This document shows positions 5,055-61,512 of a stretch of 64,000 bases of DNA, one piece after another. The stretch lies in NCBI RefSeq assembly GCF_044324875.1, contig NZ_CP172185.1; one strand, 5' to 3'. A program made the position numbers and the translations under genes. Origin of the DNA: Escherichia coli (GTDB lineage: Bacteria > Pseudomonadota > Gammaproteobacteria > Enterobacterales > Enterobacteriaceae). Below the pieces are notes generated by a model that ran no database searches, was not told the DNA's origin, and worked only from the letters and a program-made list of their open reading frames with translations. Position 1 is the stretch's first letter. Each line of letters starts with the position of its first letter.

Positions 5055-5377
5055 TTTTTTGCCCGTCCATATTCAACGGCTTCTTTGAGGAGTTCATTTT
5101 CCATCGTTTTCTTGCCGAGCAGGCGCTGGAGTTCTTTAATCTGCTTCATGGCGGCAGCAAGTTCAGAGGCAGGAACAACCTGTTCTCCGGCGGCGACAGC
5201 AGTAAGACTTCCTTCCTGGTATTGCTTACGCCAGAGAAATAACTGGCTGGCTGCTACACCATGTTGCCGGGCAACGAGGGAGACCGTCATCCCCGGTTCA
5301 AAGCTCTGCTGAACAATTGCGATCTTTTCCTGTGTGGTACGCCGTCTGCGTTTCTCCGGCCCTAAGACATCAATCAT
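5012..5377 (-). CDS. insC: IS2 OrfA (InsC), HTH DNA-binding protein
   Basis: Frame beginning [40 protein letters not shown]…, 121 aa from the internal Met of ORF 5012..5422. Confidence 0.85.
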
Positions 5378-5468
5378 CTGTTCTCCAATGACTAGTCTAA
5401 AAACTAGTATTAAGACTATCACTTATTTAAGTGATACTGGTTGTCTGGAGATTCAGGGGGCCAGTCTA

Positions 5469-13247: not shown

Positions 13248-14444
13248 ATGAAAACCTGGATATTTATATGTATGGCCGTAGCAATATTGCTATGGTTCCT
13301 GAGTACGTTAAGGCGTAAGCCCAGCCAAAAAAAAGGTTGTATTGACGCCATTATACCTGCGTATAACGAAGGCCCGTGTCTGGCACAGTCACTGGATAAT
13401 CTACTGCGTAACCCTTATTTTTGCCGGGTAATTTGCGTTAACGACGGCTCCACGGACAATACCGAAGCGGTCATGGCGGAAGTCAAACGCAAATGGGGCG
13501 ACCGCTTTATTGCCGTCACGCAAAAAAATACCGGTAAAGGTGGTGCGCTGATGAATGGCCTCAATTACGCCACCTGCGACCAGGTTTTTTTAAGTGATGC
13601 CGACACCTATGTTCCGCCCGATCAAGACGGAATGGGCTATATGCTGGCAGAAATAGAGCGCGGTGCTGATGCCGTAGGCGGCATTCCCTCTACTGCGTTG
13701 AAAGGCGCGGGTCTGTTACCGCACATCCGCGCGACCGTAAAGTTGCCGATGATTGTTATGAAGCGCACGCTACAGCAGCTCCTGGGCGGCGCACCGTTTA
13801 TTATCAGCGGTGCCTGCGGGATGTTCCGTACTGATGTATTGCGTAAGTTCGGTTTCTCCGATCGTACTAAAGTCGAAGACCTTGATCTCACCTGGACATT
13901 GGTGGCAAACGGCTATCGTATTCGGCAGGCGAATCGCTGCATCGTATACCCACAGGAATGCAACAGCCCGCGTGAGGAGTGGCGTCGCTGGCGGCGTTGG
14001 ATTGTGGGCTACGCGGTCTGTATGCGCCTGCATAAAAGGCTTTTATTTAGCCGCTTCGGTATCTTCAGTATATTTCCTATGCTGTTGGTTGTGCTTTATG
14101 GCGTTGGGATTTATCTCACTACCTGGTTTAATGAATTCATTACCACCGGGCCGCATGGTGTGGTGTTGGCAATGTTTCCGCTTATCTGGGTCGGCGTAGT
14201 TTGTGTTATTGGTGCTTTTAGCGCCTGGTTTCATCGTTGCTGGTTGTTGGTGCCTTTAGCACCGCTTTCCGTTGTGTATGTATTATTAGCTTACGCCATC
14301 TGGATTATTTATGGACTTATTGCCTTTTTTACTGGACGCGAACCTCAGCGCGACAAACCCACCCGCTATTCCGCACTGGTGGAAGCGTCAACCGCTTATT
14401 CCCAACCTTCTGTCACAGGAACTGAAAAACTTTCTGAAGCTTAA
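13248..14444 (+). CDS. yaiP: Membrane-embedded family-2 glycosyltransferase (synthase-like)
   Basis: 398 aa; N-terminal TM, GT2 core with DAD motif (FLSDADTYV) and RRW-containing segment (EEWRRWRRW), then several C-terminal TM helices. Confidence 0.8.
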   Translation: MKTWIFICMAVAILLWFLSTLRRKPSQKKGCIDAIIPAYNEGPCLAQSLDNLLRNPYFCRVICVNDGSTDNTEAVMAEVKRKWGDRFIAVTQKNTGKGGALMNGLNYATCDQVFLSDADTYVPPDQDGMGYMLAEIERGADAVGGIPSTALKGAGLLPHIRATVKLPMIVMKRTLQQLLGGAPFIISGACGMFRTDVLRKFGFSDRTKVEDLDLTWTLVANGYRIRQANRCIVYPQECNSPREEWRRWRRWIVGYAVCMRLHKRLLFSRFGIFSIFPMLLVVLYGVGIYLTTWFNEFITTGPHGVVLAMFPLIWVGVVCVIGAFSAWFHRCWLLVPLAPLSVVYVLLAYAIWIIYGLIAFFTGREPQRDKPTRYSALVEASTAYSQPSVTGTEKLSEA

Positions 14445-14561: not shown

Positions 14562-15002
14562 GTGATTGGCGCAAACTGCCTGATAGGTAATTATGCGTTT
14601 ATTCGTCCTGGCACAATAATCAGCAATGGCGTAAAAATTGGTTTTGCCACCGAAATTAAAAATGCGGTTATTGAAGCGGAAGCAATGATTGGTCCGCAAT
14701 GCTTTATCGCCGACTCGGTAGTTGCAAACCAGGCATATTTGGGCGCACAAGTACGTACCAGTAATCATCGTCTGGATCAACAGCCCGTGTCTGTTCGAAC
14801 TCCAGAGGGAATTATCGCTACCGAATGCGATAAATTAGGTTGTTATATCGGGCAGCGTTCACGCCTTGGCGTACAAGTTATTATTTTGCCTGGGCGAATT
14901 ATTTCCCCGAACACGCAACTTGGCCCGCGCGTGATTGTAGAACGTAATTTACCTACCGGAACTTATTCACTCCGACAAGAACTTATCCGTACAGGAGATT
15001 AA
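14562..15002 (+). CDS. yaiX: Hexapeptide-repeat acyltransferase (YaiX-like); 5' end uncertain, possibly truncated
   Basis: Left-handed beta-helix repeats (VIGANCLIGNYAFIRPGTIISNGVKIG…). Frame is open back to 14454, directly after the yaiP stop, with no in-frame ATG before the GTG at 14562. Confidence 0.55.
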   Translation: MIGANCLIGNYAFIRPGTIISNGVKIGFATEIKNAVIEAEAMIGPQCFIADSVVANQAYLGAQVRTSNHRLDQQPVSVRTPEGIIATECDKLGCYIGQRSRLGVQVIILPGRIISPNTQLGPRVIVERNLPTGTYSLRQELIRTGD

Positions 15003-40339: not shown

Positions 40340-41275
40340 AATTATCCACGGTTCAGGCCTGTGGGCATGATAAGACGCGTCAGCGTCGCATCAGGCATCT
40401 GCGCACGGTGTCGGATGCGGCGCGAGCGCCTTATCTGACCTACGGTTCAGACCTGTAGGCATGATAAGAGGCACCAGCGTCGCATCAGGCATCTGCGCAC
40501 GGTGTCGGATGCGGCGCGAGCGCCTTATCCGACCTACGGTTCAGGCCTGTAGGCATGATAAGACGCGCCAGCGTCGTATCAGGCATCTGCGCACGGTGTC
40601 GGATGCGGCGCGAGCGCCTTATCCGACCTACGGTTCAGGCCTGTAGGCATGATAAGACGCACCAGCGTCGCATCAGGCATCTGCGCACGGTGTCGGATGC
40701 GGCGCGAGCGCCTTATCCGACCTACGGTTCAGACCTGTAGGCATGATAAGACGCGCCAGCGTCGCATCAGGCATCTGCGCATGGTGTCGGATGCGGCGCG
40801 AGCGCCTTATCCGACCTACGGTTCAGGCCTGTAGGCATGATAAGACGCACCAGCGTCGCATCAGGCATCGGCGCACGGTGTCGGATGCGGCGCGAGCGCC
40901 TTATCCGACCTACGGTTCAGGCCTGTAGGCATGATAAGACGCGCCAGCGTCGTATCAGGCATCTGCGCACGGTGTCGGATGCGGCGCGAGCGCCTTATCC
41001 GACCTACGGTTCAGACCTGTAGGCATGATAAGACGCGCCAGCGTCGCATCAGGCATCGGCGCACGGTGTCGGATGCGGCGCGAGCGCCTTATCCGACCTA
41101 CGGTTCAGGCCTGTAGGCATGATAAGACGCGTCAGCGTCGCATCAGGCATCGGCGCACGGTGTCGGATGCGGCGCGAGCGCCTTATCCGACCTACGGTTC
41201 AGGCCTGTAGGCATGATAAGACGCGTCAGCGTCGCATCAGGCATCGGCGCACGGTGTCGGATGCGCCACACGACG
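40340..41275. repeat. Tandem REP/BIME array, about 10 copies of a 94-bp unit
   Basis: Unit GCCTGTAGGCATGATAAGACGCGCCAGCGTCGCATCAGGCATCTGCGCACGGTGTCGGATGCGGCGCGAGCGCCTTATCCGACCTACGGTTCAG recurs with exact 94-bp period; ORF-track starts at 40461, 40555, … 41119 are 94 bp apart. Each unit holds two inverted REP palindromes. Confidence 0.9.
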
Positions 41276-45889: not shown

Positions 45890-46390
45890 TCATTTGTAGG
45901 GTCGAGATTGTTGTCGGATGCGACGCTATGCGTCTTATCCGACCTACAGTTCAGTTCACCCCGCAGGCCTGATAAGCCGCGTCAGCGTCGCATCAGGCAT
46001 CGGTTGTCGGATGCGACGCCATGCGTCTTATCCGACCTACAGTTCAGTTCACCCCGTAGGCCTGATAAGTCGCGTCAGCGGCGCATCAGGCATCGGTTGT
46101 CGGATGCGACGCCATACGTCTTATCCGACCTACAGTTCAGCACGCCCCGTAGGCCTGATAAGCCGCGTCAGCGGCGCATCAGGCATCGGTTGTCGGATGC
46201 GACGCTATGCGTCTTATCCGACCTACAGTTCAGTTCACCCCGTAGGCCTGATAAGCCGCGTCAGCGGCGCATCAGGCATCGGTTGTCGGATGCGACGCTA
46301 TGCGTCTTATCCGACCTACAGTTCAGTTCATCCCGTAGGCCTGATAAGCCGCGTCAGCGGCGCATCAGGCATCGGTTGTCGAATACAACC
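45890..46390. repeat. Tandem REP/BIME array, about 5 copies of a ~95-bp unit, between prpC and prpB
   Basis: Repeated GTCGGATGCGACGC…CTTATCCGACCTACAGTTCAG…GGCCTGATAAGCCGCGTCAGCG…CATCAGGCATCGGTT; ORF-track peptides repeat with about 32-aa period. Confidence 0.85.
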
Positions 46391-50983: not shown

Positions 50984-51799
50984 CTAAAGAGTGTAGCGGA
51001 TTTTAACGTGCTTATTTACAGGATAATATCTGTCACCTAATTCCTGCACTCTATTCGATATCCATTCGTTTAATCGCGCATCATCTCTGTATGTTTTTAC
51101 GTCCAGAACAGAGAGCAATAACATCACCAGCGATTCAGGAAAAACAGGGTAGATATTTTTTAAGTGTAATAATAATCCATGCGCAAGCGCCTGCTTAATT
51201 GGTGCGTCGCTCTCCGGAATAGACGACATTTCGCGAAGCCATTTTTCCACATGCATACACTCTTTCCCTTTAGGGAAAAGTCTCAGTAAAGGCATATGGT
51301 GTTCAAGAAGAATACATTTGCAATCTGTTCGCACTGAATCGATAAACTGCACTAATTTCTTAAGCCCGGTAAAGCGTCCAGCCTGCACATTTGCTTTAAT
51401 ATCAAGAAACGCATCATCCTGGTCATATACCCAAACTGTCCCTTTTTGATTTTCAAGTATGCGAAAAACAAACTTAACCGGGTAATCAGGGTAATCCATC
51501 CAGTCATAAAATCCCGGGAAATCATTAAACTGTACATTTATGGTAAGTGCGTTATCGTCTGACCACTCACAGTCTCGTACGGCAGCCATGAGATGAATGA
51601 GTTTGTCATCATCGACTAAATCATCACGACAATCATAAGGATAATCATAATATTGTTTAATCAAAACCTTGAATATATCGACACAGGAAACCAGGGAGCT
51701 TTTGATATCCTCCGGTAACTGATTGTTTTTAACCGTATTAAGTATGCTTTGTTGCGTATATGGCATCAAATTATTGTACGGAGCTTTTAATGATATCAT
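50984..51799 (-). CDS. yahL: Hypothetical protein YahL
   Basis: 271-aa ORF in AT-rich DNA; assigned by position and length; no recognisable domain. Confidence 0.65.
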   Translation of the reverse strand: MISLKAPYNNLMPYTQQSILNTVKNNQLPEDIKSSLVSCVDIFKVLIKQYYDYPYDCRDDLVDDDKLIHLMAAVRDCEWSDDNALTINVQFNDFPGFYDWMDYPDYPVKFVFRILENQKGTVWVYDQDDAFLDIKANVQAGRFTGLKKLVQFIDSVRTDCKCILLEHHMPLLRLFPKGKECMHVEKWLREMSSIPESDAPIKQALAHGLLLHLKNIYPVFPESLVMLLLSVLDVKTYRDDARLNEWISNRVQELGDRYYPVNKHVKIRYTL

Positions 51800-53362: not shown

Positions 53363-54010
53363 TTACCCCGCAAAAGAAACACGCAATAACTTTAACTGCC
53401 CGTTAATCATGCCAAATTCCAGTATAGTTGTGCCATCACAAACAGCCGGTGGAATTTGTTCATTAGCCTGCGAACCAATATTCAGCGTAATGCCATCGTC
53501 AGAAATATTCCCCGACATCGCCAGTTCACATATTCCCGTGACGTAGTGGCGCTCCCCTTTCTCTTCGTAATAGAAACGTCCATCATTGAGGGGATAATAT
53601 TTTCTTTTTTGCTCCGCTGGCGTCAGCGAATGACTGAGATAATCATCAATCCATTGGGTACCCGGATGTATCGTGAATTTTGTGACATTATGCAGACGCC
53701 GCATAATGGTTTCTGAATGGCGATCAAATAGTGCTTCTGTGAAGGGTTCAGATTCAGGCAACTCAATCTCAGCGAGAAAGCCGAAATAGGTATCGTAGGG
53801 GAATTTTAAGAAGGTTTTTAGTTTCGTGGCATTCTTTGCACTCAGCGCTTGCTGAAACTTTTGCAATTGCGTTAAGGCATCTTTTTTCTGCTCCGGCGTG
53901 ACCAGGGGCTGTATGCGCACCGCCTCGCATTCGTGTTGTGAATTTCCAGCAGGGCAAGTTGCCAGGACGGCCTGACTCAGAAACAACAGCGATAACCAAA
54001 GAAATTTCAC
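53363..54010 (-). CDS. Hypothetical secreted/periplasmic protein (no name assigned)
   Basis: 215-aa ORF with signal peptide MKFLWLSLLFLSQAVLA and four Cys in the mature part; sits between yahK and yahJ. Confidence 0.5.
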   Translation of the reverse strand: MKFLWLSLLFLSQAVLATCPAGNSQHECEAVRIQPLVTPEQKKDALTQLQKFQQALSAKNATKLKTFLKFPYDTYFGFLAEIELPESEPFTEALFDRHSETIMRRLHNVTKFTIHPGTQWIDDYLSHSLTPAEQKRKYYPLNDGRFYYEEKGERHYVTGICELAMSGNISDDGITLNIGSQANEQIPPAVCDGTTILEFGMINGQLKLLRVSFAG

Positions 54011-54129: not shown

Positions 54130-55508
54130 TTACACCACACTCCCCCACACCAGTTGTCCTTTATGGAACGTTGCCGTTCTCGGCGAGATACGCGCCACCG
54201 CCTCGGCGGAACAGGAGGCGTCCACCAGCACAAAACTGGCGTCATCCTGCGCTTTGGGCCACACGCGCTCGCCTTTTTCATTCAGCGGCAATACATCGCC
54301 AGTGGCTAAAAACAGCGAACGGGACAAATTCTGTTCGTTAGGGCGAATATAGAGCTGCGCGTACAGATTGGCTTTTTCCAGCATGTCGCCCAGGCCATAA
54401 GGTGACCAGTGGTCAATAACGCTGTCAGTTCCGGTCATGACTTTTACGCCTTTGTCGTGCAACTGTTTGAGCGGCATATGCAGCGTGCCAATCGGCACCG
54501 TCGAGGCGATAGAAATTTGCTGCGCCGCCATCCGGTGCGCCAGTTCATCTACCTGTTGTTCGTTGAGCGTTGCCAACGCAAAGGCGTGACTGATGGTCAG
54601 CTTGCCCTTCAGCTGTGGCGTTTTCTCTACCGTTTCAACCATATAATTGATGGCTGCCACACCTGCCGGAGTGGTTTCGTGCAGGTGAATATCGACGCCT
54701 TTGTCGTAGTCCAGCGCAATCTGAAACATGGTGTCGAGGGATTTTTCCATCGCGCCATCAACACTGGTTGGGTCCAGCCCGCCGACGTAATGCGCGCCCG
54801 CCTGCATCGCTTCACGCATTAAGGGTTCTGATTTCGACAGCAGCAAACCGTGCTGCGGGAAGGCGACGATTTCACACTCGAAGCCCGCCTGACGTCGCGC
54901 CAGCACCGCCTGCAAATTTTGCAGATTTTTCAGGCCGGAAACCGGTTCGATATTGCAGTGGCTGCGGGCAATGGTGGTGCCTTTCGACTGCAATAAATCG
55001 ATCAGTTTTTCCGCTCGTTCCTGAGTGTACGGTTGCAGCTCCGGCAGCATTTTCTGCTCGAGTTTGATCATGTCCTGGATGGTGGTCCTGCCGGGCGATT
55101 GAGCGAGCGCCACGGCCCGCCGTAAAAGGTTTTGTCGAGATGAATATGCATGTCGCGGGTGGTGGGCAGCATCAGCTTACCGCCAGCGTCATAGTGCGGC
55201 AGCGTGGCGTCCGGATGCTGCTTGTTCTCGCGCAGGGCAACAATTTTGCCGTTCTGAATCTCTACGGTCTGGTGCGCCGTGCGGGTCTGTACCGCCACAC
55301 CGTTTTCGTAGTCAAAACCGGTTTCCAGCAGCACGTTGTCGAGATAGTAGTGCGGGTCAGTGATTTTCATGGTGTTATTCGCGTCGCAGTTTAGGGTGCC
55401 AGAGACTGCCGCATGGGCGAGCGGCACAGAGGTACCAAACAGCGCGGCGGCGGTGACCATCTTACAGCTCTGGCTCAGAAACTCACGGCGGCTATTGTTT
55501 TTTTTCAT
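54130..55508 (-). pseudogene. yahJ: Tat-signal amidohydrolase/deaminase YahJ, split by an apparent frameshift
   Basis: ORFs 55068..55508 (146 aa, Tat motif SRREFL) and 54130..55113 (327 aa) overlap by 46 bp in different frames and together cover one amidohydrolase-length gene. Confidence 0.7.
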
Positions 55509-55517
55509 CTTACGTCC

Positions 55518-56468
55518 TTACGTTTTAATAATATGTGTGCCTGTTTCACCGCGCAGCGCCGCAGGCAGGCATTCCGGCGTGGTGATAATCACTTCTTTGC
55601 CGCCCTGCTCCAGGAACGTCAGGCTGGCGATGATTTTTGGCAACATGCTGCCAGGCGGGAAATGCCCTTCCTGCATATAGCGGGTCATGGTGGCAATATC
55701 CACCCGATCCAGCGCCTGCTGCTGCGGCTTGCCAAAGTGAATACACACTTTTTCGACGCCGGTGGTGATCACCAGAATGTCGGCGTGAATTTCACGGGCC
55801 AATAGCGCGGTAGAGAGATCTTTGTCGATAACCGCGTCCACGCTTTGGTAATCCCCCGCTTCACTGCACACCACCGGAATTCCACCGCCGCCCGCGCCAA
55901 TCACCACAAAACCTTGTTGGATCAGCGCCTTAATGGCAGGTGCTTCGACAATACGTTTCGGTTCCGGCGAGGCGACCACGCGGCGATAGCCCCGTCCGGC
56001 ATCTTCAACAAAACGCCAGTCAGGGTTTGCCTTTTGTAATTCGTCACGCTGGCTTTCACTGAAGAATGCGCCGATGGGCTTGGTGGGATGAGCAAATCCC
56101 GGATCGTTTTTATCCACTTCCACCTGAGTCACCACGGTGACGGCTTTTTTCTCGCCGTGACGCGCCAGTCGGTTATTCAGCGCCTGTTGGATCAGGTAGC
56201 CGATGCCACCTTGCGTATCCGCCACACAGTTCGCCAGCGGCGTTAAGGGCAGCCCTTCGCGCTCGTGGGCAATCTCCGCACGGCGTAAATCCAGCCCGAC
56301 CTGCGGCCCGTTGCCGTGGGTCAGCACAATGTCGTAATCGGAAGCCAGCATTTCCAGCACCGTATCGGCGACGGCCTTCACCGCCTCCGCCTGATGCTCA
56401 ATCGACTGGCTGGCGTTATCTTTGATAATGCTGTTGCCACCAATGGCAACGACCACAAGTTCTTTCAT
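55518..56468 (-). CDS. yahI: Carbamate kinase-like protein
   Basis: 316 aa; amino-acid kinase fold (MKELVVVAIGGNSI…). Confidence 0.9.
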   Translation of the reverse strand: MKELVVVAIGGNSIIKDNASQSIEHQAEAVKAVADTVLEMLASDYDIVLTHGNGPQVGLDLRRAEIAHEREGLPLTPLANCVADTQGGIGYLIQQALNNRLARHGEKKAVTVVTQVEVDKNDPGFAHPTKPIGAFFSESQRDELQKANPDWRFVEDAGRGYRRVVASPEPKRIVEAPAIKALIQQGFVVIGAGGGGIPVVCSEAGDYQSVDAVIDKDLSTALLAREIHADILVITTGVEKVCIHFGKPQQQALDRVDIATMTRYMQEGHFPPGSMLPKIIASLTFLEQGGKEVIITTPECLPAALRGETGTHIIKT

Positions 56469-56494: not shown

Positions 56495-56705
56495 TGGGGT
56501 TATGACCAACGCCAGACTGCCTGATGCGCTACGCTTATCAGGCCTAGAATTCTCGTGCCATTCGTAGGCCGGATAAGGCGTTCACGCCGCATCCGGCAAT
56601 GGTGACAAATGCCTGATGCGCTACGCTTATCAGGCCTACAGATTCTCGCGCCACTCGTAGGCCGGATAAGGCGTTCACGCCGCATCCGGCAGAGACAACG
56701 CGCAC
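56495..56705. repeat. REP/BIME elements between yahI and yahG
   Basis: Two copies of CCTGATGCGCTACGCTTATCAGGCCTA…CGTAGGCCGGATAAGGCGTTCACGCCGCATCCGGCA. Confidence 0.85.
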
Positions 56706-56713
56706 TTTGCAGG

Positions 56714-58132
56714 TCAGACGCCGTAACGTTCGCACCAGCCAAGAATGGCTTTCTCGAAGCAGGCGAATGGTGGATGCACAATGCCCGCGCCAATCATGCC
56801 GACGCCCGCATCTTTATGGGCGATGGCGGTGTTGATCACCGGCAGAATGCCGCTACTGCCCACGCGGGTTATGTCGATTGCCGACGGCACGCCCATAAAA
56901 CCGAGCAGCGGAATGGTGACGTTGGGATTTTCGCCGAGAGTGATTTCGCGCATCTGGCGGGAGAAATCGATGGCCTCTTCCACCGTACCGCCCACCAGCG
57001 CGACGATTGCAGGCGCGGTCGCCATAGCAAATCCACCAATGCCGTAGGTTTCGGTGATGGCGCTGTCGCCAATATCCAACCCAGAATCTTCCGGCTTATA
57101 ACCGGCAAACATCGGGCCGATGACCTGCTGCGCCGGACCGGTAAACCATTGCCCCGGTAATCCGCTGACCCGCAGGCCGAACTCGACGCCGTTACGCGCC
57201 ATGGTGGTCACCACAGTGCTGTATTCGATGCCGTGCGCCGCATCCATCGCCGCTTTACACATCGCCATCCACGTCGGGCCGGAGAAGTAGTCACTGCTGG
57301 CGACAAACTCAAACACTTCGCGCTGTTGCTCGACGGAGTAGCCCGCCTGAATAATCCCCGGCGTCAGCGCCTGAATCAGCAGCGTCGTCCCGGCGTTATT
57401 GCGGTTATGGCACTCATCGCCCATATGCAGCGCCTGCGCCAGCATTAAGCGCAGATCGATCTCGCCGATAATTTTCATCGCATCGCGCAGCATTGGCCCC
57501 TGCACATCACGCATCCAGTTGAGTCGGTCGATCACGCTCTGGTCGTTAGCGCCCATACGCAAAATCTTTGCCATCTGCTCGCTCATATTGGTGTAAGCGA
57601 TGTTGCCGTAGGTTTTGTTTTTCACGATGTGCATAAACATCGAGGCCGAGGTAACACCCGCCATCGATCCCACGCAGTCATGTTCGTGGCACGGCGAGAA
57701 GGTGATCTCCCCGGAGGCCGCCAGTTCAGCCGCCTCATCGAGATCTTTCGCCAGCCCTTCGAACACCAGCGCTCCGGTGACCGCGCCTTTCATCGCGCCA
57801 CACATTTTTTCCCAGGTGATCGGCGGTCCGGCGTGAAGAATGGTTTTCGGCGTCATACCCGGCACCACGTTAATCGCCTGATCAAAACCAATCAGCACCG
57901 GATGCGACTGGATAATGCGCTCCAAAGCCTGCTGGTTAGCGGCGGCGATTTTGTCTGCCAGCGGCGAATCGGCAATGTTATCCAGCGCCTGCACCACCTG
58001 CATATTGCCCTGCCCCGGCGGCGTCCAGTCGAGTTGAGTCACTTCTACATGCTGCTTTTTCAGGTCATCGCTAAACATGGCGATGCCGACGTTAATAACG
58101 TTCAACGGTTGGCTAAACAGTGACTGGCTCAT
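56714..58132 (-). CDS. yahG: DUF1116 family protein YahG
   Basis: 472-aa ORF immediately downstream of yahF. Confidence 0.8.
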   Translation of the reverse strand: MSQSLFSQPLNVINVGIAMFSDDLKKQHVEVTQLDWTPPGQGNMQVVQALDNIADSPLADKIAAANQQALERIIQSHPVLIGFDQAINVVPGMTPKTILHAGPPITWEKMCGAMKGAVTGALVFEGLAKDLDEAAELAASGEITFSPCHEHDCVGSMAGVTSASMFMHIVKNKTYGNIAYTNMSEQMAKILRMGANDQSVIDRLNWMRDVQGPMLRDAMKIIGEIDLRLMLAQALHMGDECHNRNNAGTTLLIQALTPGIIQAGYSVEQQREVFEFVASSDYFSGPTWMAMCKAAMDAAHGIEYSTVVTTMARNGVEFGLRVSGLPGQWFTGPAQQVIGPMFAGYKPEDSGLDIGDSAITETYGIGGFAMATAPAIVALVGGTVEEAIDFSRQMREITLGENPNVTIPLLGFMGVPSAIDITRVGSSGILPVINTAIAHKDAGVGMIGAGIVHPPFACFEKAILGWCERYGV

Positions 58133-59679
58133 CAGGCTTCCTCCCCTTTGCAGATAAATTCACGCGCCAGCAATCCGGTATTGGTGCTGCTGCTTGCCAG
58201 AATTACCCCAGCATCAAGCAGCATCTGGCTTTGTTGTTCTAATGATGGCGTATCAAGATCGGTACCCAGCACATAGGCGAGAATGATCAACTCACGTCCT
58301 TCGGCAGCGGCGATCGCTTTCGCTTCTTTGATCGCATCGATGGTGGAGCCGACCGGATCTTCATGCGATCCAAATCCGAGCACAAAATCCATCACGATCA
58401 CCGCCACTTCTGGATCGCGCGCTTCTTCGATCAAGCGACTGATGCGGTTGGTCGGGTCAATCATTGGATGCGGCTTGCCGTTGGTGAAGTCGTCATCACC
58501 AAAGTCGAGGAAGGTGTGTTTGATGCTGCGGCTGATATCTTGCAGGCGGAATTCCGGATCGGGCTGAATGTTGCTGTAGACATCGCCGTGTTTTTCCATC
58601 ACCGCGAACATCGTTTCGTCGCACAGCGTGCCGCCGCAGAACAGGCCACGAATGTATTTCTGTTGCGGTTGCAGGCGAGCGCGCACGTCAGCAATCAATG
58701 GCTGGTTCAGGGTATGCAGGTCGAGATGTTCTTGTTTCACACCGGAGAGCATCACCGCTTTTAGTGCCGCCTCTTTGGTGCCGCGAGCAAACTGTAGCCC
58801 CTGCTCATCCACTGGCGTTTCGCCACGACCGAGGAAGCAGACTACCACTGGCTTACGGCAGGCGCGTGCGCGTTCCAGCACTTTGCGGGCCACCGCAGGC
58901 GCTGGCGGTTTGGAGATAAGCACAATGATTTCAGTTTGCGGATCGTTTTCCAGCATCCCGATGGCGTCGAGCATCATCAGGCCGCCGATTTTCTCGCTCA
59001 GGTCGCGCCCGCCGGTGCCGATCAGTTGCGAAACGCCGCCGCCAAATTCATGAATGCGGACGCTCAGCTCCTGGCTGCCGGTGCCGGATGCGCCAACAAT
59101 ACCGATGTTGCCGCGACGCACGGCGTTACCAAAGCAGAGCGCCGCGCCGTTGATAATCGCCGTACCGCAGTCTGGCCCCATCATCAGCAGCCCTTTTTCG
59201 TGGGCCAACTGTTTGAGCGCCAGTTCATCTTCAACTGAGACGTTATCGGAAAACAGCATCACTTTAAGATCGTTTTGCAGCGCCTGACGCGCTTCGCGAG
59301 CGGCAAACAGACCGTTGACCGAAATCACCGCCAGGTTACTTTCCGGGATATGCTTTTTGGCGCTGGCAATAGTGGCATAGCGTGCTTCATGTGAACCAGT
59401 TTGAGCTTTGGTGTTGAACAGTTCTTCAATCTCCACCAGCAACTGCTCGTTGTCCGCACCCGATTTACCATTGATGACAATCATCAGGTCACCGTTTTTC
59501 GCCTGCTCCAGTTCCGGCGTCAGCAGTCCTAAATTCTTCAGCACACCTTTGTTCATTTCGGTCGCCATCGCCACAAATGCCTGCTCGACGCCGTCGAGTT
59601 TATTTGCACGCGTGGAGATAGACATCAGCGAGACAGAATCAAAATAGGTATTCGGTTTAATGACTATTTTAACTGACAT
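58132..59679 (-). CDS. yahF: FdrA-like acyl-CoA synthetase (CoA-binding, succinyl-CoA-synthetase-alpha-like)
   Basis: 515-aa ORF; Gly-rich CoA-binding segments. Confidence 0.85.
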   Translation of the reverse strand: MSVKIVIKPNTYFDSVSLMSISTRANKLDGVEQAFVAMATEMNKGVLKNLGLLTPELEQAKNGDLMIVINGKSGADNEQLLVEIEELFNTKAQTGSHEARYATIASAKKHIPESNLAVISVNGLFAAREARQALQNDLKVMLFSDNVSVEDELALKQLAHEKGLLMMGPDCGTAIINGAALCFGNAVRRGNIGIVGASGTGSQELSVRIHEFGGGVSQLIGTGGRDLSEKIGGLMMLDAIGMLENDPQTEIIVLISKPPAPAVARKVLERARACRKPVVVCFLGRGETPVDEQGLQFARGTKEAALKAVMLSGVKQEHLDLHTLNQPLIADVRARLQPQQKYIRGLFCGGTLCDETMFAVMEKHGDVYSNIQPDPEFRLQDISRSIKHTFLDFGDDDFTNGKPHPMIDPTNRISRLIEEARDPEVAVIVMDFVLGFGSHEDPVGSTIDAIKEAKAIAAAEGRELIILAYVLGTDLDTPSLEQQSQMLLDAGVILASSSTNTGLLAREFICKGEEA

Positions 59680-60160
59680 AATTCCCTCCGTAGGTTTGGC
59701 TCAGCGCACAACCATCGGCCATGCCATACAGCATGTCGCAGCCGGAACTGGAGCCAATATGTTTAATTTTTTCTATTGCCTGGGTTGAATTCCCAGGGAC
59801 ACCATAAATAATATCGTGAATAAAATGATGAATATTTTCCCGGCAGCGTTGTTGTAATGCGGCTTCCAGCGTTATGGCACTTAATAACGTGGTATTATTT
59901 CTGCCGCGTTGCAGACCGATATAAAATTCCTCTTTGTATTTTTCCGCCGGATGTCCGGAAATAAATAAAATAAGCGCCAGACCTGTTAAATAATCATCGG
60001 CTGATGGCGTAAGGCCAATCCCTAACCCCATCATACTGGCGACCGCTAAGGCGATATTTTTTTTATCGTTTACTTCCTGAATAACTGCCCGTCGTTTAAT
60101 ATGTAATTCTTTATTTAACGCCTGATAAAACGGATTATCGCCGCGATAATTAAACAGGGT
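59669..60160 (-). pseudogene. yahE: YahE-like (DUF2877) gene, 3' portion only; 5' end replaced by IS1
   Basis: Frame stays open without a start codon from the IS1 boundary at 60160 down to the stop at 59669 (…TLFNYRGDNPFYQALNKELHIKRRAVIQEV…MMGLGIG…); overlaps the yahF start. Confidence 0.65.
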
Positions 60161-60175
60161 GGTAATGACTCCAAC

Positions 60176-60679
60176 TTATTGATAGTGTTTTATGTTCAGA
60201 TAATGCCCGATGACTTTGTCATGCAGCTCCACCGATTTTGAGAACGACAGCGACTTCCGTCCCAGCCGTGCCAGGTGCTGCCTCAGATTCAGGTTATGCC
60301 GCTCAATTCGCTGCGTATATCGCTTGCTGATTACGTGCAGCTTTCCCTTCAGGCGGGATTCATACAGTGGCCAGCCATCCGTCATCCATATCACCACGTC
60401 AAAGGGTGACAGCAGGCTCATAAGACGCCCCAGCGTCGCCATAGTGCGTTCACCGAATACGTGCGCAACAACCGTCTTCCGGAGCCTGTCATACGCGTAA
60501 AACAGCCAGCGCTGGCGCGATTTAGCCCCGACATAGCCCCACTGTTCGTCCATTTCCGCGCAGACGATGACGTCACTGCCCGGCTGTATGCGCGAGGTTA
60601 CCGACTGCGGCCTGAGTTTTTTAAGTGACGTAAAATCGTGTTGAGGCCAACGCCCATAATGCGGGCAGTTGCCCGGCAT
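60176..60679 (-). CDS. insB: IS1 InsB (transposase C-terminal frame)
   Basis: 167-aa ORF recognised as IS1 InsB. Confidence 0.9.
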
Positions 60680-60873
60680 CCAACGCCATTCATGGCCATA
60701 TCAATGATTTTCTGGTGCGTACCGGGTTGAGAAGCGGTGTAAGTGAACTGCAGTTGCCATGTTTTACGGCAGTGAGAGCAGAGATAGCGCTGATGTCCGG
60801 CGGTGCTTTTGCCGTTACGCACCACCCCGTCAGTAGCTGAACAGGAGGGACAGCTGATAGAAACAGAAGCCAC
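60598..60873 (-). CDS. insA: IS1 InsA (transposition repressor)
   Basis: 91-aa [46 protein letters not shown]…. Confidence 0.92.
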
Positions 60874-60928
60874 TGGAGCACCTCAAAAACACCATCATAC
60901 ACTAAATCAGTAAGTTGGCAGCATCACC

Positions 60929-61270
60929 AGAGATTTACCAACTGCTGAAGCGGAAATATCTCGCGTGCAGGCGTCTATTATCAAATGGTATGCGTCAGAA
61001 TACCATAATGGCAGGCAAGTTCTCGATGAGATACAAACGCCTTCAGCAATTAACAGTGAGCTTTATACAAAAATGATATATCTGACCAGGAACTGGTCAT
61101 TGTATCCGAACGGTGATGGCTGTGTAACTATAAGCTCACCAGAAATAAAAAATAAATACCCTGCTGCCATTTGCCTGGCTCTGGGATTTTTTCTAAGCTT
61201 TGTAATTTCTGTAATGTTTTGCCTTGTCAAAAAAATGGTAGATGAATACCAACAAAACTCTGGGCAGTAA
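60929..61270 (+). pseudogene. 3' fragment of a membrane-protein gene (ykgH-like by position), 5' end replaced by IS1
   Basis: Frame open with no stop from the IS1 junction at 60929 to the stop at 61270; C-terminal hydrophobic helix (AAICLALGFFLSFVISVMFCLV). Confidence 0.4.
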
Positions 61271-61512
61271 TAAACAGCATTCTGATAGAGAGTGCCTGTA
61301 TAAAGCTGAAGTGACAATGACCGGGAAGGGAACCCGTTTTCAGGAATGGATGCCTGTCTTTTTCACTGTAAATATCCTGGCATTACTAATGCCAGGATAT
61401 TTACAGAAGAGCAGCATAACCATGACGGAACGGGGTTAAGTCAGGTTGTCCTTAACGCTATTCACAACCTCGTATGCCGACTTCAGGTTTATGTCCAGAC
61501 TTCATATCTCTC

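Follow-up and report, generated by a model that had tools for sequence, protein, structure and literature searches.

Two overlapping minus-strand open reading frames (ORFs) at the yahJ locus of an Escherichia coli genome (RefSeq assembly GCF_044324875.1, contig NZ_CP172185.1) raise the question of whether a predicted exported amidohydrolase gene has been inactivated, has been misread during sequencing, or is expressed in two parts. The locus lies within a stretch of 64,000 nucleotides, referred to here as the window, whose positions are used throughout. An earlier note, made from the letters of the window alone, took the two ORFs for one frameshifted yahJ gene that was either a pseudogene or the product of a single-base sequencing error. 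We present here the comparison of this locus with its relatives, which makes it highly probable that this E. coli lineage has inherited yahJ as a genuine frameshift pseudogene.

The two ORFs (55068-55508 and 54130-55113) share 46 bp and constitute one yahJ gene. The ORF listing and the sequence bear out the coordinates, the overlap and the SRREFL motif given in the earlier note. The disrupted gene (54130 to 55508, minus strand) is the 1,380-bp intact gene less one base, and its repaired ORF is colinear with WP_000665140.1 of E. coli BEC1-S17-ESBL-09 (hereafter BEC1). The 5′ ORF (55068 to 55508, minus strand) encodes 146 amino acids, begins MKKNNSRREFLSQ and ends RPAGPPSRT before its stop; its translation, read from 55508 to 55068, is MKKNNSRREFLSQ...FYGGPWRSLNRPAGPPSRT*. 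The longest form of the 3′ ORF (54130-55113, minus strand) encodes 327 amino acids from a GTG codon and contains TTIQDMIKLEQ. The form taken by gene callers (54130 to 55071, minus strand) encodes 313 amino acids from an ATG at 55071-55069, which overlaps the upstream TGA as ATGA.

When aligned with three intact alleles of yahJ, the window proved to be one base short, having lost the C of GCAGG[C]ACCACC: where the reference alleles have GCAGGCACCACC, it has GCAGG-ACCACC. This C is the third base of the Gly141 codon (GGC to GG-), and the gap falls between positions 55086 and 55087 on the minus strand. The pairwise alignment proposed in the earlier note to locate the indel placed a single gap there, in agreement with a frame switch between ...NRPAG and TTIQDMIKLE. 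The switch does not lie in a C/G-rich run, as had been supposed; the deleted C is a lone base flanked by G and A, outside any homopolymer or C/G run. A compensating second indel was ruled out, with a single gap in the gene and the surrounding 16 kb. The 5′ fragment ends in five out-of-frame residues (PPSRT) followed by the TGA stop, and only five residues (TTIQD) are missing between the two pieces. Restoring the C produces a 459-codon ORF, of which 453 residues are identical to the BEC1 orthologue and six differ.

The identity of the gene is supported by both profile searches and position. The repaired 459-residue protein scores 715 bits against NCBIfam NF005312 (PRK06846; curated cutoff, 447 bits), with residues 49-458 aligned to model positions 2-409 of 412, and it passes Pfam PF07969 with 68.9 bits (cutoff, 29.7). 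A frameshift in a yahJ amidohydrolase gene, as first proposed, is thus what the one-base difference from intact yahJ and the full-length PRK06846 protein obtained on repair indicate. The 146-residue piece alone scores 134 bits against NF005312, below the cutoff. The Pfam families matched by YahJ are Amidohydro_3 and Amidohydro_1. The orthologous position, downstream of yahI and upstream of yahK, was confirmed by synteny with BEC1 and Ecol_316, in which the gene is annotated as yahJ. E. coli K-12 YahJ (b0324), a predicted Tat-exported deaminase/amidohydrolase, occupies the same locus (yahI-yahJ-...-yahK) and is the same protein once the window gene is repaired; relative to K-12, the window gene is interrupted by the 1-bp deletion after codon 141. 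YahJ, with its SRREFL signal, has been listed as a predicted Tat substrate (PMC3027627, PMC7549933), and yahJ sits in a dense y-ome cluster (PMC11551758).

The closest solved relatives of YahJ by sequence are AtzC-type N-isopropylammelide isopropylaminohydrolases (PDB 6nbo, E = 4e-44; also 2qt3) and cytosine deaminase CodA (PDB 1k6w, E = 9e-16). The HxHLDKT, HLHE, SHAF and G-x-D motifs are common to YahJ and the AtzC/CodA-type enzymes. Unlike these enzymes, YahJ has a predicted N-terminal Tat signal, and it scores below the cutoffs of the cytosine deaminase models and so is not a CodA equivalog. Read from the sequence, the signal comprises the twin-arginine motif SRREFL at residues 6-11 (then S), a hydrophobic stretch and AHA|A at residues 31-34; no Tat-signal profile of Pfam or NCBIfam matched at E ≤ 1.

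In the amidohydrolase superfamily, the HxH pair and later His/Asp residues jointly bind the catalytic metal. According to the HMMER alignment to 6nbo, the break, at residue 141, immediately follows strand 1 with its conserved H-x-H-L-D-K-T motif (H121, H123). The 146-residue piece holds the Tat-type signal, the N-terminal beta-sandwich part and the HxH (H121, H123). The 313-residue piece holds DIHLHE at 273-278 (H275/H277), SHAF (H308) and GTD (D362), and it has neither a signal peptide nor the HxH. The HxH and the later His/Asp ligands are all present in the DNA but are encoded on separate polypeptides.

To place the deletion among relatives, the region was compared by megablast with 5,426 complete E. 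coli genomes. It was matched in 5,042, with 5,035 matches covering at least 80% of the query, and the best matches span 1,442 bases versus 1,441 in the query. The annotations of the matched genomes name this region yahJ (amidohydrolase family protein) and place it downstream of yahI, with yahJ a single CDS in every hit listed. The closest complete genome is BEC1, at about 99% identity; none is closer than about 99%. The yahJ deletion is the only indel in the 16-kb alignment block with this genome (L015). Approximately 46 kb of synteny with it contains no more than six indels, of which two are frameshifts in coding sequence, and ends with an IS1 event; the assembly of the window is therefore not indel-prone. 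A Shigella-like, heavily decayed genome was also considered and, given this synteny with six indels and the IS1 event, is unsupported for this stretch.

The deleted junction itself was sought with a 44-nt probe centered on it and unable to seed on the wild-type sequence. It returned no hits in the 5,426 complete genomes, a count that misses genomes in which a single-nucleotide polymorphism (SNP) lies less than about 22 nt from the site, as it does in roughly half; a wild-type 45-mer control matched 2,651 records. A 70-mer junction search of the complete genomes matched 4,077 records, all of them at less than 99% identity. Since the deleted junction is found in no complete genome, the ancestral state is a single ORF.

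Other public sequences do carry the deletion. The exact 146-residue product is SRB26449.1 ('deaminase [Escherichia coli]') and is present on 31 public contigs (NCBI and Logan); the exact 313-residue product is SRB26450.1, on 33. Both are already public, deposited as two separate CDSs. Ten contigs encoding the 146-residue product were retrieved, two from NCBI assemblies (GCA_900482385.1 and GCA_958308375.1) and eight from Logan assemblies of different sequencing runs. All ten carry the identical deleted junction and are 99.97 to 100% identical to the window over 6 to 11 kb. Five have private SNPs and so represent distinct isolates rather than one data set used repeatedly. Metagenome contig L014 (ENA ERZ21883540) has the deletion as well, in an allele that is more distant and differs by 12 mismatches over 1.7 kb. 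A YahI sequence identical to that of the window is found on 810 contigs, versus 31 to 33 for the frameshift products, which makes the frameshift a recent derived state within a larger group sharing the neighboring allele. The deletion is real, is vertically inherited in a small clone and is limited to a small clade. The earlier note had counted the same two-ORF layout in many strains as evidence against a lesion; the layout is shared, but only within one clone and by L014, and its junction was not found in the complete genomes. Thus yahJ combines a single ancestral ORF in relatives, a disrupting indel and confirmation of that indel across independent assemblies.

The neighboring yahE was also said to be inactivated, and this holds. 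Homology to intact yahE (AllH family) ends at 60160, leaving a remnant at 59669 to 60160 (minus strand) with only the 3′ 121 codons (a 121-residue ORF). It adjoins an IS1 copy at 60161 to 60928, which joins the remnant to the 3′ part of ykgH (flanks 59669-60160 and 60929-61500). The two flanks of this IS1 share no target duplication. The arrangement fits an IS1-associated deletion that would have removed 5′ ykgH, betABIT, yahA-D and 5′ yahE; relative to other E. coli, the choline-to-betaine genes betA/B/I/T are lost. Among the contigs reaching this point, L005 has the IS1 junction exactly, and in L004 (GCA_900482385.1) the frameshifted yahJ is accompanied by yahD and yahE genes that are both intact. 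The yahJ frameshift therefore preceded the IS1 event, and the window belongs to a sub-branch, which is also marked by a C at 51480 found only in the window and L005.

Relative to the closest intact allele, the nine substitutions in yahJ all fall within its first 313 nt; the remaining 1,067 nt, toward the 3′ end, show no difference and no further lesions. This identity is in line with a recent event and provides no positive sign of decay in that part of the gene. L014 has the deletion and L39, N40 and H105 in common with the window and lacks E3K, S4N and G15C; on the simplest reading, these three signal-peptide changes would thus have arisen after the frameshift. E3K and G15C are found in no other YahJ N-terminus retrieved. 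Post-frameshift changes in the signal peptide would match relaxed selection, with numbers too few for a test.

Three explanations compete with an inherited pseudogene. The missing base could be a sequencing or assembly error in a gene that is really intact. One-base indels are the commonest kind of assembly error, and the window has a second one-base change, in an A5 run at about 14455. However, the deleted C stands outside any homopolymer, its loss is the sole indel of the 16-kb flanking alignment, and it is also missing from two NCBI assemblies, eight independent Logan assemblies and one metagenome contig, with private SNPs separating the clone isolates. We rejected an error, whose probability is negligible, since all the independent assemblies retrieved have the deletion and no homopolymer is involved. 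Of the two outcomes offered by the earlier note, a real pseudogene is the one favored by the shared deletion in the ten clone contigs and L014 and by products on 31 to 33 contigs. Equally improbable is recovery of full-length YahJ by programmed -1 ribosomal frameshifting or by transcriptional slippage, for which nothing speaks beyond the two overlapping frames. No in-frame X XXY YYZ heptamer lies near the junction, no homopolymer is available for transcriptional slippage, and the 121 nt that surround the site form an RNA fold whose stability does not exceed that of shuffled sequence (z = 0.28). The two-frame layout is limited to one clone and one metagenome contig, and the ancestral gene is single framed. 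Recoding was rejected for want of a slippery heptamer, an RNA structure and a two-frame arrangement conserved among the 5,426 complete genomes.

More is to be said for a split gene that works, although it too is very unlikely. Here the 146-residue Tat piece and the 313-residue piece, the latter made by termination-reinitiation at the ATGA, would assemble in the cytoplasm and be coexported via Tat, the signal-less piece hitchhiking. The Tat pathway exports folded complexes, signal-less partners included. The upstream TGA overlaps the in-frame ATG of the downstream piece, only TTIQD is lost between them, and the 3′ part has no further lesions. Against this, the break lies inside the catalytic barrel, directly after the strand 1 that carries the HxH, and the AGGA one base from the ATG is poorly spaced for a ribosome-binding site. 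The complete genomes searched offer no precedent, yahJ being a single CDS in every listed hit. The lineage-specific nonsynonymous changes E3K and G15C fall in the signal peptide, and a sub-branch of the clone has also lost 5′ yahE, which points to decay of the operon and not to its maintenance. While the ATGA overlap could permit some translation of the 3′ fragment, there is scarcely any likelihood that both pieces are translated through it and reassemble into an active Tat-exported enzyme, with the 313-residue piece carried by the 146-residue one. If they were both active and exported, yahJ would be a naturally occurring split Tat substrate.

The frameshift pseudogene accounts for the locus as follows. 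Loss of the third base of the Gly141 codon would shift the frame after residue 141, so that PPSRT is read before the stop at TGA. The predicted 146-residue product would keep the twin-arginine signal peptide, part of the beta-sandwich and the HxH and lose the rest of the amidohydrolase barrel. Judging from this architecture, neither piece should be an active periplasmic hydrolase, and we infer both a loss of enzyme activity and relaxed selection. The frameshift came first, and the IS1-associated loss of 5′ yahE later, in the sub-branch that includes the window. The two events together suggest that an accessory, putatively nitrogen-catabolic operon is being lost, namely yahEFG-yahI-yahJ, a paralogue of allFGH plus a carbamate kinase gene. 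A literature search on a yahJ pseudogene found nothing relevant.

The other genes of the operon are preserved in the window. Immediately upstream of yahJ is an intact yahI (55518 to 56468, minus strand), which encodes a 316-residue protein of the carbamate kinase family. It is preceded by yahG (472 residues, AllG family; Pfam PF06545 AllG) and yahF (515 residues, AllF/FdrA family; PF27530 HMA_AllF_N), both intact (56714 to 59679, minus strand). YahE, YahF and YahG match the AllH, AllF and AllG Pfam families, and YahI belongs to the carbamate kinase family, a composition resembling the allFGH-allK anaerobic allantoin branch. AllH, AllF and AllG are subunits of oxamic transcarbamylase (PMC11326118), and the allantoin branch pairs oxamic transcarbamylase with a catabolic carbamate kinase (PMC11326118, PMC9843812). 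Because of these family memberships, the yah cluster looks like a paralogous carbamoyl-transfer catabolic module similar to the anaerobic allantoin branch, with YahJ as its putative hydrolase. The all cluster has no Tat-exported YahJ-like enzyme. The yah paralogues are unmentioned in the allFGH and ybcF papers. Between yahJ and yahK lies a 215-residue ORF (53363-54010, minus strand) with a hydrophobic, signal-like N terminus (MKFLWLSLLFLSQAVLATC). Pfam gave no match for this ORF, a hypothetical protein by annotation, and its exact sequence occurs on at least 1,000 contigs.

Lesions in this operon are not confined to the clone. In another lineage, that of BEC1, yahF (L001, 2013-3560; annotated there as an fdrA pseudogene) has a lesion of independent origin, an internal stop. 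Taken with the yahJ deletion and the IS1-associated loss, this stop indicates that the yah operon is dispensable and repeatedly decaying in E. coli. Other yahJ truncations occur in E. coli assemblies (P0004, with a T-run deletion, and P0005, P0007, P0009 and P0014); in one example, TTTT becomes TTT upstream of the same stop. They lie at other positions, several of them in homopolymers, whereas that of the window is outside a homopolymer and confirmed in many assemblies. Several of these other truncations, from single long-contig assemblies, may be homopolymer long-read errors rather than pseudogenes.

A single frameshifted pseudogene would be the proper annotation of yahJ in this clone, in place of two 'deaminase' CDSs (SRB26449.1 and SRB26450.1), and the deletion provides a clean clonal marker. 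In one study of an extraintestinal pathogenic E. coli (ExPEC) strain, deleting yahJ was reported to cause mild attenuation in competition (competitive index, 0.70; PMC7549933). Natural loss of yahJ may therefore have a small effect on fitness in some niches. The case is one of ordinary gene decay in an accessory operon, with little import beyond annotation.

Several further differences were observed elsewhere in the window. At about 14455, an A5 run of BEC1 is A4, near the 5′ end of an acetyltransferase gene between yaiP and yaiO (ORFs 13248-14444 and 14562-15002, plus strand); the longest ORF of this gene encodes 146 amino acids from a GTG codon, versus 193 in BEC1. Since the change falls in a homopolymer, a true frameshift and an assembly error are both conceivable. 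An in-frame insertion of 6 bp (ACCAGA) at about 35321 distinguishes cynX from its counterpart in the closest complete genome. In the isolate of GCA_900482385.1, a mobile element has probably inserted near the position that corresponds to 49442 of the window, where the window has none; positions 12068-12232 of contig L004 from this isolate, at the contig end, match window 5304-5468, a repeated element elsewhere in the window. REP-type tandem arrays with 93- to 94-bp units are present between codB and prpE (9.8 copies, 40348-41265), between prpC and prpB (5.1 copies, 45910-46381) and between yahG and yahI (1.9 copies, 56518-56691, the 'yahH' REP site of K-12), and their copy numbers differ between the window and the reference genomes.
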